A stretch of DNA of 64,000 nucleotides from Candidatus Woesearchaeota archaeon (GTDB lineage: Archaea; Nanobdellota; Nanobdellia; Woesearchaeales; ARS49), in assembly GCA_038891615.1 (NCBI GenBank), contig JAWADY010000001.1:128001-192000 (forward strand), read 5' to 3'. Below the pieces are notes generated by a model, which ran no database searches, was not told where the DNA came from, and saw nothing but the letters and a program-made list of their open reading frames with translations. The position numbers and the translations under genes are program-made. This document shows positions 29,799-63,242 of the stretch, piece after piece (positions within the stretch are counted from its first letter, which is position 1; every line of letters begins with the position of its first letter).

Positions 29799-30815
29799 AT
29801 GAACAACGGACTTGAGGAAGAGTTAGAAAAGTTCAAAAATATAACCAAAACCATTTTTGCACATTATGCGAGATGGAACGGATATTCCTATACAGACTAT
29901 CTGAAGTTTCAGGAAGGGTTTACGGAAATTGTGAAGGCGCATGTAAGAAAAGAAAGACGCCTTGAGAACAAACTGCGCCCCTACCTAAAAAAATATTCGC
30001 AAGATTACATAGAAGATTTTAGGCAATGGGCCCTCTCTAGTGAAGAGTGCTTATTTAACGATGTAGCGAAGTCTGACAAAATTTTTGTTGGAGACTTTCA
30101 CACGGTAAAACAACCAAAAGAAATGCTACTCCAGATTGCGCAGGCGATTTTGAACAAAGGCAGGCCAGTAACAATCTGTCTTGAAATGGTACTTTCAAGA
30201 CAACAACAGCTTCTTGAAAGTTATTTGGCAGGCCGAGTGTCAGAGCGCGAATTTTTGAACAAGATTAATTATTATAAGGATTGGGGATTCTGTTGGCCTT
30301 ATTATAGGCAAATTTTCGAGTTCGCATCAAAACACAAAGAGATGGTAAAATTGGTTGGAATAGACTCTAACAGAAATGCTTTCAATTGTTATCTTAGGGA
30401 TGACCATGCTGCCAAAATCATTTACTCAGAAATCAAAAACAGCCCAGAAAGGGCTGTGATTGTATTCGCGGGAGATCTCCACATAGCCAGCAAACACTTG
30501 CCATACAAAACAAAAAAGCTGATTGGGCAGGATGCAAAAAGCTTGATTATATACCAAAACAAAAGTTCAATCTATTGGAGTCTTGGTAGGGAAGGAAAGT
30601 TGAAGGAGGAAGGGCTAATAAAAGGCGTTGTCAAGATTGGGGATAAAGGTTATTGCGTTTTAAACATTCACCCAGCGATAAAATGGTTTTCATATCTTGT
30701 TTGGGAAAAACAAAGGAAAATAAAATCAAAGACAGCAATTGAGAACATATACAAGAAATGCGCACAAATTGTCGAAGAGCTGTGCAAATGCAAAAAAGAC
30801 AAAAGTCTTAAATAA
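29799..30815 (+). CDS. ChaN-like (TraB/TIKI/ChaN superfamily) protein
   Basis: VGDFH, LEMV, WGFCWPYY..IFEFA, RD, AGDLH. Confidence 0.7.
   Translation: MNNGLEEELEKFKNITKTIFAHYARWNGYSYTDYLKFQEGFTEIVKAHVRKERRLENKLRPYLKKYSQDYIEDFRQWALSSEECLFNDVAKSDKIFVGDFHTVKQPKEMLLQIAQAILNKGRPVTICLEMVLSRQQQLLESYLAGRVSEREFLNKINYYKDWGFCWPYYRQIFEFASKHKEMVKLVGIDSNRNAFNCYLRDDHAAKIIYSEIKNSPERAVIVFAGDLHIASKHLPYKTKKLIGQDAKSLIIYQNKSSIYWSLGREGKLKEEGLIKGVVKIGDKGYCVLNIHPAIKWFSYLVWEKQRKIKSKTAIENIYKKCAQIVEELCKCKKDKSLK
30807..30814 (+). promoter_or_regulatory. TATA box of the putative ncRNA
   Basis: CTTAAATA preceded by a purine-rich BRE-like AAAAG, with 22 nt between it and G30837; same spacing as TTTAAATA (50172-50179) to tRNA-Leu. 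Confidence 0.55.
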
Positions 30816-30836
30816 GACATCTACTTATGGCCTTTT

Positions 30837-30932
30837 GCCGCGCAGGGCATCCTGGGGAGGTGATGCATAGTTGCAATGACTGTGTATTCCTCTTGGAGAT
30901 CGATGATTTCCAACCAGGCCTAGAGCAGCGGC
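30837..30932 (+). ncRNA. putative structured non-coding RNA of unknown family (three-way junction)
   Basis: GCCGC/GCGGC closing stem, CCTGG/CCAGG, two hairpins with several G-U pairs, GC-rich in AT-rich context, own TATA box. Confidence 0.6.
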
Positions 30933-30945
30933 ACGTTATAATAAG

Positions 30946-31440
30946 TCAATCAAGTGTGGTAGTAAATTTTTCGCCTTCGAGGTGAAAAAGCCTTTTTACA
31001 AATTTTTTTTCTAAAACGGAATTGAGAACTCTACCGATGAAAAGCATGTGATCTCCTAGTTGAATCTCCTGTGCAAGTTGACATTCTAACCATCCTGCTG
31101 CTTCCTTCACAAGTGGTGCATCGATTTTCTCAGCCTGACCTTTTGTCAAACCAGCATCGCGCCACTTGTCAGTATGATGAAGATGAATGCTTCTTGCGCA
31201 TTTTATTGTAGCAGCCGCTAACTCAAAAGGAATAAAATTGACAACAAAACATCCTGCCTGGCGAAGTATCTCAATCTCTGCTTTGGCGCTTACTGCGATA
31301 AGATACATGGGAGGGTTCTGCGAGGCAGGGCAATGCCAAGTTACTGGAAAGAGTTCGTCATGCTCGAGTTCCTTTCCATGAATCACAGGTCTTCCTCTAC
31401 AACTGACAAGAATTATCTGCAAAGGATTATATATCAGCAT
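30946..31440 (-). CDS. flavin reductase (DIM6/NTAB) family protein
   Basis: PPMYLIAV, FVVNF, APLVKEA..WLEC, GDHMLFIGRV. Confidence 0.9.
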   Translation of the reverse strand: MLIYNPLQIILVSCRGRPVIHGKELEHDELFPVTWHCPASQNPPMYLIAVSAKAEIEILRQAGCFVVNFIPFELAAATIKCARSIHLHHTDKWRDAGLTKGQAEKIDAPLVKEAAGWLECQLAQEIQLGDHMLFIGRVLNSVLEKKFVKRLFHLEGEKFTTTLD

Positions 31441-32104: not shown

Positions 32105-33262
32105 ATGATATACGAACCTCGTGAGGATAGCTTTTTATTACAGGAATGGGTTAGAAAGTTTGCGAGAGGAGTTGTGCTTGATGTTGGCACAGGCTCTGGA
32201 ATTCAGGCAGTGACAGCAGCTAAAAAGAGAACAGTAAAAAAGGTTGTTGCAATTGATATTTCAAAGGAAGCAGTTGCACAGTGCAAGAAAGCCATCAGAA
32301 ACAAAAAAATTACATTTCTACAGAGCGACCTCTTTTCAAATGTTAAAGGGTCATTTGATACAATAATCTTCAACCCTCCTTATCTTCCAACAGAGCCTGG
32401 AATACCCAAGGATGTTAGTGTTGAAGGCGGTAGAAAAGGCTACGAAACCCTAGTGCGTTTTCTCGAAGGAGCAAGCAGGTATCTTAAGCAGGACGGAATA
32501 ATACTTATCGTTTTTTCTTCACTTACAAAAAAAGCAAAGGTCGATGAAGCGTTAAAAAACTACATGTTTGAACACAAAACACTTGCAACGCGAAAGTTAG
32601 CCTTTGAAGAGCTTTATGTTTATCTCATCACTAAAAGCCAACTGATGAGGACTCTTGAGAAAAAAGGTATTTCAGACATAAGATATTTTGCAAAAGGAAA
32701 AAGAGGAGTTATCTACACAGGCATAATGCATGGAAAAAAGGTTGCGATAAAGGTAAAAAGAATGGAGAGTCTTGCACTTGGGCGGATAAGAAATGAAGCA
32801 AAAACGCTAAAGATAGTAAACAGACTCGGAATTGGTCCAAAGCTGCTTTTAGCAGGTCCCGGTTTTGTTGTTTATGAGTTTGTTGAAGGAGAATATTTGA
32901 AAGACTGGATTGTTGATGCACGACAAGACCAGGTAAAAAAAGTTTTCAATAGCCTTTTTCAGCAAGCGTATAGGCTTGATAAGATATGTCTAAACAAAGA
33001 GGAAATGCACAGACCATTCAAGCATGCAATTGTAGGTAAAAATGAAAAGGTCACATTGATTGATTTTGAACGCGCAAGAAAGGTCAAAGCAAACAAGGTA
33101 AAAAATGTAACACAGTTGTGCCAATTTGTTTTTTCATTACAAAAGCTGCTCGAGAAAAAAGGGCTGAAGATTGATAAGAAAAATCTTTTGTCATTAGCAA
33201 AGTCGTACAAGGCAGAACCTTCAGAAGAAAGACTTAAAGCAATTATTAGGCAGATTGGGTAG
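32105..33262 (+). CDS. HemK/PrmC-like methyltransferase fused to an archaeal RIO/Bud32-like protein kinase domain
   Basis: IYEPREDS, LDVGTGSG, FNPPYLP, GGRKG; then AKGKRG, VAIK, NEA, YEFVEG, LIDFE. Confidence 0.85.
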   Translation: MIYEPREDSFLLQEWVRKFARGVVLDVGTGSGIQAVTAAKKRTVKKVVAIDISKEAVAQCKKAIRNKKITFLQSDLFSNVKGSFDTIIFNPPYLPTEPGIPKDVSVEGGRKGYETLVRFLEGASRYLKQDGIILIVFSSLTKKAKVDEALKNYMFEHKTLATRKLAFEELYVYLITKSQLMRTLEKKGISDIRYFAKGKRGVIYTGIMHGKKVAIKVKRMESLALGRIRNEAKTLKIVNRLGIGPKLLLAGPGFVVYEFVEGEYLKDWIVDARQDQVKKVFNSLFQQAYRLDKICLNKEEMHRPFKHAIVGKNEKVTLIDFERARKVKANKVKNVTQLCQFVFSLQKLLEKKGLKIDKKNLLSLAKSYKAEPSEERLKAIIRQIG

Positions 33263-41820: not shown

Positions 41821-41938
41821 GGGCCCATGGTCTAGTGGTTATGACGTCTGCTTGACGACGCGCTTTTGCTCAAAAGATAAAAAGGCAAAGAGCGTGCCAA
41901 AATGCAGGAGGTCGCCGGTTCGAATCCGGCTGGGCCCA
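41821..41938 (+). tRNA. tRNA-Val(GAC) with 45-nt intron at 37/38 (41858-41902)
   Basis: GGGCCCA/TGGGCCC, A73, TCTGC-TT-GAC-G|intron|T-GCAGG, TTCGAAT; intron stem CGCGCTTTTGC/GCAAAGAGCGTG. Confidence 0.93.
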
Positions 41939-63115: not shown

Positions 63116-63242
63116 CCCCGCGTAGCTCAACGGTGGAGCGTCCGGCTGTAGCTGAAAAGCGCCCGTAGACAAGGTATTTGCCATGGATGACAACGGGTCA
63201 GCCGAACCCGGAAGGCTGCTGGTTCGAATCCGGCCGCGGGGA
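63116..63242 (+). tRNA. tRNA-Tyr(GUA) with 55-nt intron at 37/38 (63152-63206)
   Basis: C1-G72 acceptor CCCCGCG/CGCGGGG, A73, TCCGG-CT-GTA-G|intron|C-CCGGA, TTCGAAT. Confidence 0.93.

Follow-up and report, generated by a model that had tools for sequence, protein, structure and literature searches.

A strand-specific, unusually stable predicted RNA fold between convergent genes of a Woesearchaeales archaeon: a candidate small RNA gene

Introduction

RNA genes were reportedly sought by Klein, Misulovin and Eddy in 2002 as stretches whose GC content sets them off from the rest of the genome. The element described here, a 98-nt stretch of an archaeal genome that is predicted to fold into a rod ending in a three-way junction, can be compared with several kinds of described RNA. 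With the lineage-specific orphan small RNAs of archaea it shares a length of about 100 nt, an archaeal-type box, a terminal helix, a three-way junction, a GC content over the genome mean and the lack of an Rfam family; however, those RNAs rest on conservation or on transcripts, whereas the element is known here from its sequence alone. No description of such an RNA came up in the portions of the literature that were accessible to our search.

The S domain of the SRP RNA (helix 5 and the junction of helices 6 and 8) offers another comparison, in that the element is likewise a rod with internal loops ending in a three-way junction, and its CAGG and AGCAG motifs face each other in the lower loop. 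Unlike the S domain, it has no GNRA-capped helix 8, and its hairpin loops are GCAAU and GAU. The likeness to tRNA lies in the GC-rich terminal helix (GCCGC/GCGGC), which is followed by an unpaired-looking A resembling a discriminator base, in the spacing of the box and the T-1/G+1 start, which are as in the tRNA genes of this genome, and, by eye, in the loop of hairpin A, which begins with UGCAA like the T-loops of both tRNA-Thr. The element nevertheless lacks a cloverleaf and the T arm of the GGTTCRAATCC type that the tRNAs examined in this genome carry.

As far as the accessible parts of the reports go, bulge-helix-bulge (BHB)-dependent processing of RNAs other than introns exists in archaea (PMC4731332, PMC3218864, PMC12558985), and the BHB-flanked clients of the endonuclease include the permuted SRP RNA of Thermoproteus (PMC4731332) and permuted tRNAs (PMC3218864). 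The element resembles the BHB-flanked RNAs (tRNA introns, pre-rRNA processing stems, permuted SRP RNA and permuted tRNAs) in having 3-nt loops on opposite strands of a 4-bp helix with the correct polarity, placed at the base of a folded domain, but it is one base out of register, has an extra facing A and has a short outer helix.

Results

The element lies on the + strand of the window, by which we mean the whole stretch of 64,000 nucleotides that was analysed and to which all coordinates without a contig name refer. The genome assembly comprises 661,270 bases in 5 contigs, with 41% GC and 97.9% completeness, and DNA of the host occurs in hot-spring metagenomes. The host stands apart from its relatives: for ribosomal protein L10e, its identity to the counterparts in 40 family genomes does not exceed 72%, and its genus has no second genome in the set. 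The intergenic gap that holds the element (30816-30945) separates two convergent genes. The upstream one, co-oriented with the element, is a ChaN/Tiki-like gene of 338 aa (29799-30815, + strand; Pfam PF04187, E 9.9e-23), and the element begins 20 nt past its stop codon. Of 77 family genomes, 2 have this gene; the copy outside the host is 29% identical and has no such element downstream, and among 5.8 billion proteins the ChaN-like protein matched only itself. On the other side lies a flavin-reductase-like gene of 164 aa (30946-31440, minus strand; Pfam PF01613, E 1.4e-21), with orthologues in 46 of the 77 family genomes, the host included; its 3' UTR would be antisense to the element. As the initial annotation had noted, no co-oriented gene lies directly downstream, the adjacent gene being convergent and the next + strand gene starting at 32105, and a riboswitch or cis-regulatory leader was rejected on this ground.

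The minimum free energy (MFE) structure of 30836-30933 (+ strand, 98 nt) has a free energy of -47.9 kcal/mol, with 40 pairs and 18 unpaired bases. In it, P1 joins 30836-30843 to 30925-30933 with A30927 bulged, and is followed by a 1x3 internal loop (A30844 against AGA 30922-30924), a 4-bp helix (30845-30848 with 30918-30921), an AUC bulge (30849-30851) and a second 4-bp helix (30852-30855 with 30914-30917). The 5' strand of the rod is 30836-30855; its 3' strand (30914-30933) is composed of 30914-30917, 30918-30921, AGA 30922-30924, GC 30925-30926, A30927 and GCGGCA 30928-30933. The rod ends in a three-way junction with one unpaired base, A30913, from which emerge hairpin A (30856-30893; 16 pairs, 5 of them G-U, with U30861 bulged and a GCAAU loop) and hairpin B (30894-30912; 8 pairs and a GAU loop). 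Each of the helices originally proposed is present in the sequence where it had been placed. The lower-stem register given with them (AGG/CCT, a GCAT bulge and CCTGG/CCAGG) exists as an alternative with the same number of pairs, but the MFE prefers the register with the AUC bulge; at 60 °C and above, ViennaRNA shifts one base pair of the rod toward the alternative register, a CAU bulge replacing AUC. The fold is predicted to persist at 70-80 °C, and hairpin A to 80 °C. There are 7 G-U pairs in the MFE structure, all on the + strand, and no A-C mismatches inside helices; since 7 of 7 non-Watson-Crick pairs are thus G-U on the + strand, the pattern fits selection on an RNA rather than a DNA palindrome. 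The initial annotation had counted four G-U pairs in favour of the + strand, which is the number in its own helices; the strand preference holds, with the count in the MFE structure being 7.

The stability of the fold was judged against shuffled sequence and against the rest of the genome. Dinucleotide shuffles of the element (n=200) gave -30.85 +/- 3.66 kcal/mol, none of them (0/200) folding as well as the element, which has a z of -4.66. The reverse complement, in contrast, was ordinary, with -29.6 kcal/mol and 42 of 200 shuffles as good, and its z of -0.93 against -4.66 for the + strand bears out the preference for the + strand that had been claimed. A difference between strands as large as that of the element (18.3 kcal/mol) was seen in 9 of 4,835 random windows. 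When 98-nt windows were sampled at random from the same genome, none of 15,014 reached -47.9 kcal/mol, the best being -41.9 kcal/mol; after adjustment for GC the z of the element was -4.71, and only one of the 15,014 windows, located in an intron-rich tRNA-like gene, was lower. The element has a GC content of 0.55, against a genome mean of 0.41. Outside long ORFs there are 61 GC-rich (at least 0.54) windows of 98 nt, and known stable RNAs account for 46 of them. Among the remaining 15, only the element folds exceptionally (-4.71, the other 14 ranging from +0.7 to -3.2), and those 14 showed no Rfam match, no match to the covariance model R1 described below and no comparable fold.

Searches for known families gave nothing at the element. 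At gathering scores, Rfam found only 4 tRNAs in the whole window, and at E up to 10 it returned 5 chance-level matches in 30700-31050, none of which covers the element. One intron model touches the last 10 bases of the element with 13.4 bits at E up to 10. The initial annotation, which had been made without databases, could not match the element to tRNA, 5S, RNase P, C/D, H/ACA or small ribozymes, and the Rfam search agreed with it on all of these. The tRNA model (RF00005) gave no match at E up to 10, and ARAGORN found no tRNA either with or without introns; at least one intron-rich tRNA-like gene of this genome is also missed by Rfam, yet it keeps the T-arm motif that is absent from the element. 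Three other stable RNAs have their own genes elsewhere in the genome and gave no match at the element: 5S rRNA (RF00001) at C3:95877-95989 with 70.2 bits, archaeal SRP RNA (RF01857) in a full-length copy at C2:11806-12078 with 146.1 bits, and archaeal RNase P RNA (RF00373) at C3:2713-3090 with 131.6 bits. The resemblance of CAGG and AGCAG to SRP helix 8, pointed out at the start together with the missing GNRA-capped helix, is real to the extent that the two motifs oppose each other in the lower loop, with RF01857 unmatched. A C/D box sRNA was rejected: the best C-like word is GUGAUGC (6 of 7 positions of RUGAUGA), CUGA is absent from the element, the stretches that would have to act as guides are taken up by pairing in the hairpins, and the element shows no complementarity of at least 10 nt to the rRNA operon. 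So was an H/ACA sRNA, there being no ACA in or just past the element and its internal loops being a 1x3 loop and a 3-nt bulge. A hammerhead or other small self-cleaving ribozyme was set aside in view of the single unpaired junction base and the lack of an Rfam match, and readings as a permuted tRNA, a split-tRNA half, a K-turn, a SECIS element or an mRNA intron were dropped after comparison by eye with the fold. The 73-nt piece 30851-30923, considered by itself as a permuted tRNA, has three arms but neither the T-arm motif nor a U33 anticodon loop. No TROVE/Ro60 gene was found in the genome.

We then asked whether the element has relatives. It is a single copy in its own genome, and BLAST against 61 genomes gave foreign matches of only 14-34 nt, the best with an E of 0.009. 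A covariance model (R1) was made from the one sequence and its MFE structure, and the query itself scores 113 bits with it. R1 was run over 101 relatives, over 151 genomes of the phylum and, with laxer filters, over 40 family genomes, these sets overlapping, and it recovered the query alone apart from two weak matches. The covariance-model search of DPANN genomes that had been suggested as a check has thus been carried out, but it recovered no homologue. These negative counts include the unpublished genomes G009, G034, G024, G101, G116 and G077, which no positive claim uses. Both weak matches were rejected: the one in G063 (17.3 bits) is inside a 661-aa ORF and scores at most 5.9 bits with the filters off, and the one in G006 (14 bits) is inside a 702-aa ORF and has a fold z of -0.81. 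The locus is not syntenic in relatives; nothing similar was found at 29 L10e loci (best 10.4 bits), and no similar fold was found at 28 flavin-reductase loci. At the flavin-reductase locus of one relative there are three AT-rich perfect hairpins instead.

Sequence collections were no more productive. A metagenome scan with the ChaN-like protein gave 75 pattern matches, none of which was confirmed, and a two-part DNA pattern found nothing in metagenomes; its two matches in bacterial genomes score 6.0 and 8.4 bits with R1 and are put down to chance. Of two 19-mers searched in viral contigs, one had no match and the other had 2, both in GC-rich, coding-looking sequence. One of these viral matches reached 17.6 bits over 50 nt because the 19-mer is common to both sequences, both hairpins being absent from it. 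All such matches of the collection scans in GC-rich bacteria and phages are what chance would produce. Four metagenome DNA runs from two studies, searched at 80% likeness and possibly including the source of this DNA, contained contigs identical over 551 bases, with no variant. Since no search found a homologue, support from covariation is absent.

For comparison with the sequence upstream of the fold, we aligned what precedes 27 genes for stable RNAs in this genome, namely those of 24 tRNAs, 5S, SRP and RNase P. In most of these references the box is (A/C)TTT(A/T)(A/T)AA and starts 30-35 nt before the mature 5' end. A TATA-like box upstream of the element, CTTAAATA (30807-30814, + strand), was scored with a position-weight matrix; it overlaps the TAA stop (30813-30815) of the ChaN-like gene and lies 22 nt before G30837, in a register (-30 to -23) identical to that of TTTAAATA before tRNA-Leu(UAA). 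The first helix starts within one base of the start predicted by the tRNA-Leu spacing, and the element has T at -1 and G at +1, as do many tRNA genes of this genome. However, of the tRNA-type promoter that had been claimed, only the spacing is reproduced exactly: CTTAAATA scores 2.3 bits, below all 27 references (4.0-12.2 bits), and 14% of random genome positions score as high. Its first box position is C, where T is found at 26 of the 27 matrix-picked reference sites. The word CTTAAA conforms to YTTAWA, the classical consensus of box A in archaea. The same word can be made out by eye at about the same offset before tRNA-Ala(CGC), at a site that was not picked by the matrix. The box is therefore a plausible and well-placed, but putative, promoter of the element.

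Directly 5' of the fold is a T4 tract (30833-30836, + strand), the last T of which precedes the putative start G30837, and this tract is possibly a weak terminator of the ChaN-like gene. Oligo-T is absent directly after the fold, the first T5 being 34 nt downstream, and many stable RNA genes of this genome have TTT within 10 nt of the 3' end. The first oligo-T signals on the + strand (30967-31010) are T5 at 30967-30971, T5 at 30993-30997 and T8 at 31003-31010, which fall within the 3' end of the gene on the minus strand; a + strand transcript may end at one of them. The element was rejected as a hairpin-plus-T-run terminator; the only terminator-like site in the scan is at 30967-30989.

Discussion

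The locus holds a single-copy, strand-specific fold of exceptional predicted stability, and our preferred explanation, held tentatively and with slightly less than even confidence, is that it is a candidate gene for a stable RNA, specific to the lineage and separately transcribed, whose shape underlies its action. The weak TATA-like box at 30807-30814 would direct initiation at G30837 or next to it. This would yield about 97 nt of RNA, which may be cut down from a primary transcript of about 135 nt that ends at the T5 of 30967-30971. The GC-rich terminal helix would lock the two ends of the RNA together, and the RNA would presumably be stable in the cell. It may serve as a protein-binding scaffold or as a processing substrate rather than by base-pairing with other RNAs. 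As for targets, no complementarity of at least 14 nt was found elsewhere in the genome and none of at least 10 nt to the rRNA operon, and the 13-mer complementarities (3 seen) are close to the 2 or so that we estimate to be expected by chance. With 80 of 98 bases paired and no antisense target in the genome, action through shape is the mode that we infer. DPANN archaea have very small genomes with little spare DNA, and because an element that outfolds all sampled stretches is kept in such a genome, it is a reasonable candidate for an RNA with a function.

An explanation without a separate gene is that the element belongs to the 3' UTR of the ChaN-like mRNA, which would read through the weak T4 and be shielded by the fold from exonucleases at its 3' end, or that the fold insulates the converging units. 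The element is indeed on the same strand as the ChaN-like gene, a short distance past its stop; both gene and element are unique to the lineage; the promoter match is weak; and other gene ends, in the genome and in relatives, also carry hairpins. Yet a single hairpin would suffice for such a role, and those other gene-end hairpins are far simpler than a rod of 98 nt with a three-way junction. The T4 tract between the stop codon and the fold, the coincidence of the fold start with the start predicted from the TATA-like box, and the lack of a T-run behind the fold also argue against a 3'-UTR origin, which we consider unlikely. One could also envisage that the element is a functionless or decaying GC-rich insert specific to the lineage, for example a remnant of an RNA gene or of a mobile sequence, whose fold was inherited and is now unselected. 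The failure to find a homologue in the genomes and collections searched would be expected of such an insert, as would the lack of synteny at the locus, and the copies in the 4 runs, all identical, give no sign of selection. Non-functional DNA of this size would, however, be unusual in a 661-kb genome, and 40 mismatch-free pairs with 7 G-U pairs on one strand are unlike the neutral decay of a palindrome. If A-C and G-U were equally likely under decay, such a bias would arise about 1 time in 64, counting either strand, an estimate that overstates the case, G-U pairs being selected by the MFE itself. On balance an unselected insert seems improbable to us. The existence of an open frame of 52 codons across the element (30827-30985), with a Cys/His pattern, and of a ribosome-binding-site-like GGAGGTGAT inside it raises the further question of a small protein gene, encoded by this frame or by a shorter one within it. 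No homologue was found among 5.8 billion proteins at lengths of 28-91 aa, the frame begins ahead of the base where transcription is predicted to start and shares 40 nt with the convergent gene, and GGAGGTGAT is buried in hairpin A, the usable start codons after it giving only 2 or 15 codons; we regard a protein product as scarcely credible.

The base of the rod permits yet another reading, in which the element is a substrate of the tRNA-splicing endonuclease, the helix 30845-30848/30918-30921 mimicking the BHB motif. Cleavage and ligation by RtcB would then set free a circle of 73 nt (30851-30923) that includes the junction together with hairpins A and B. The 3-nt loops (AUC and AGA) around the 4-bp helix have the polarity shown by the true intron motifs of the host's tRNA-Asp, Tyr, Val, Ala and Ser, and EndA and RtcB are both encoded. 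In archaea, RNAs other than tRNA are known to be circularised in a BHB-dependent way, to judge from the accessible parts of two reports (PMC4731332, PMC12558985). Against this, in every register the two strands differ by one base, with 7 or 8 nt of one strand and 6 or 7 nt of the other lying between the outer helices; the AGA loop is opposed by A30844, and after no more than 2 pairs the outer helix is interrupted by a further bulge; and loosely defined BHB-type motifs turned out to be common by chance in the same motif scan. In this genome the true BHB motifs have at most one mismatch in the central helix, and EndA is a single gene with a reading frame of 177 aa. EndA of the homotetramer type is the strict kind, which is relevant if the host enzyme is of that type. 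We therefore hold it very doubtful that the element is cut. If the near-BHB base is cut after all, the splicing machinery of archaea would have in the element a new client that is not a tRNA. A bolder form of the proposal, very unlikely in our estimation, makes the element the founding member of a new stable RNA family, restricted among archaea to an unsampled hot-spring genus of DPANN, transcribed like a tRNA and either converted at its near-BHB base by the endonuclease and RtcB into a three-armed 73-nt circle or acting as a tRNA-shaped decoy or scaffold.

Returning to the separately transcribed stable RNA, the element would, if transcribed, represent a new RNA family in a group whose non-coding RNAs are almost unexplored. 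Its present value is that of a target for RNA sequencing, as a single sequence in one population, and not that of a result. In weighing an RNA gene we had counted against it the weak box, the lack of a homologue and the lack of oligo-T directly 3' of the fold, as well as the composition of hairpin A, in which A-U and G-U pairs abound whereas the tRNA stems of this genome are GC-rich. Counted in its favour was a fold that is predicted to be heat-stable, in an organism found in hot-spring metagenomes.

Intron- and insert-bearing tRNA genes

Two tRNA genes in the window carry introns, tRNA-Val(GAC) at 41821-41938 (intron of 45 nt) and tRNA-Tyr(GUA) at 63116-63242 (intron of 55 nt), and the bulge-helix-bulge (BHB) motifs of both introns are near-canonical, the central helix of each having a single mismatch. 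Words resembling C/D boxes were seen by eye within the Tyr and Asp tRNA introns.

Elsewhere in the 661-kb genome (G000), a 161-nt tRNA-like gene, L080 (contig C1, 60103-60263, + strand), has the look of a class II tRNA, with an acceptor stem, a D arm and a T arm GCAGGTTCAAATCCTGC, and harbors a strongly folded insert of about 77 nt or more (−75.7 kcal/mol). ARAGORN called this locus as tRNA-Phe with an intron, and Rfam did not detect it, neither at gathering scores nor at an E value of 0.01. When sequences were inspected by eye, a candidate tRNA-Thr(CGU) gene, L085 (contig C3, 102353-102450, − strand), was recognized, in which the D-arm region would hold an insert; this candidate was neither called by ARAGORN nor matched by Rfam. 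ARAGORN found no tRNA-His or tRNA-Gln in the genome, and therefore further intron-disrupted tRNA genes probably await annotation.

Also outside the window, two near-identical copies of a GC-rich 40-nt trailer (C1, 69505-69544 and 209330-209369) each lie 3' of a tRNA gene. One of these genes is tRNA-Lys(CUU); the other was assigned to Glu by ARAGORN and to Lys(UUU) by eye.

The ChaN/Tiki-like gene and terminator-like hairpins

The ChaN/Tiki-like gene (29799-30815) upstream of the predicted three-armed RNA is nearly unique, being present in 2 of the 77 family genomes. A search of its protein against 5.8 billion proteins returned only a self-match (called at 274 aa, from a contig of 4.3 kb), and the Pfam domain match is limited to the first half of the domain.

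On the other side of the element, at 30967-31010 (+ strand), a hairpin resembling a terminator is accompanied by T5, T5 and T8 tracts; it falls within the final codons of the flavin-reductase gene, which is encoded on the minus strand. In the related genome G102 (locus L111, contig C38), the flavin-reductase orthologue is followed closely downstream by a tandem of three near-perfect, AT-rich hairpins on the convergent strand, with a z score of −4.69 at 29% GC. These hairpins look like bidirectional terminators, and they are unrelated to the element at 30836-30933. In an intergenic region of the archaeal genome itself, outside the window (G000, C3, 125033-125251, − strand), GC-rich hairpins are followed by long T-runs and resemble the intrinsic terminators of bacteria.
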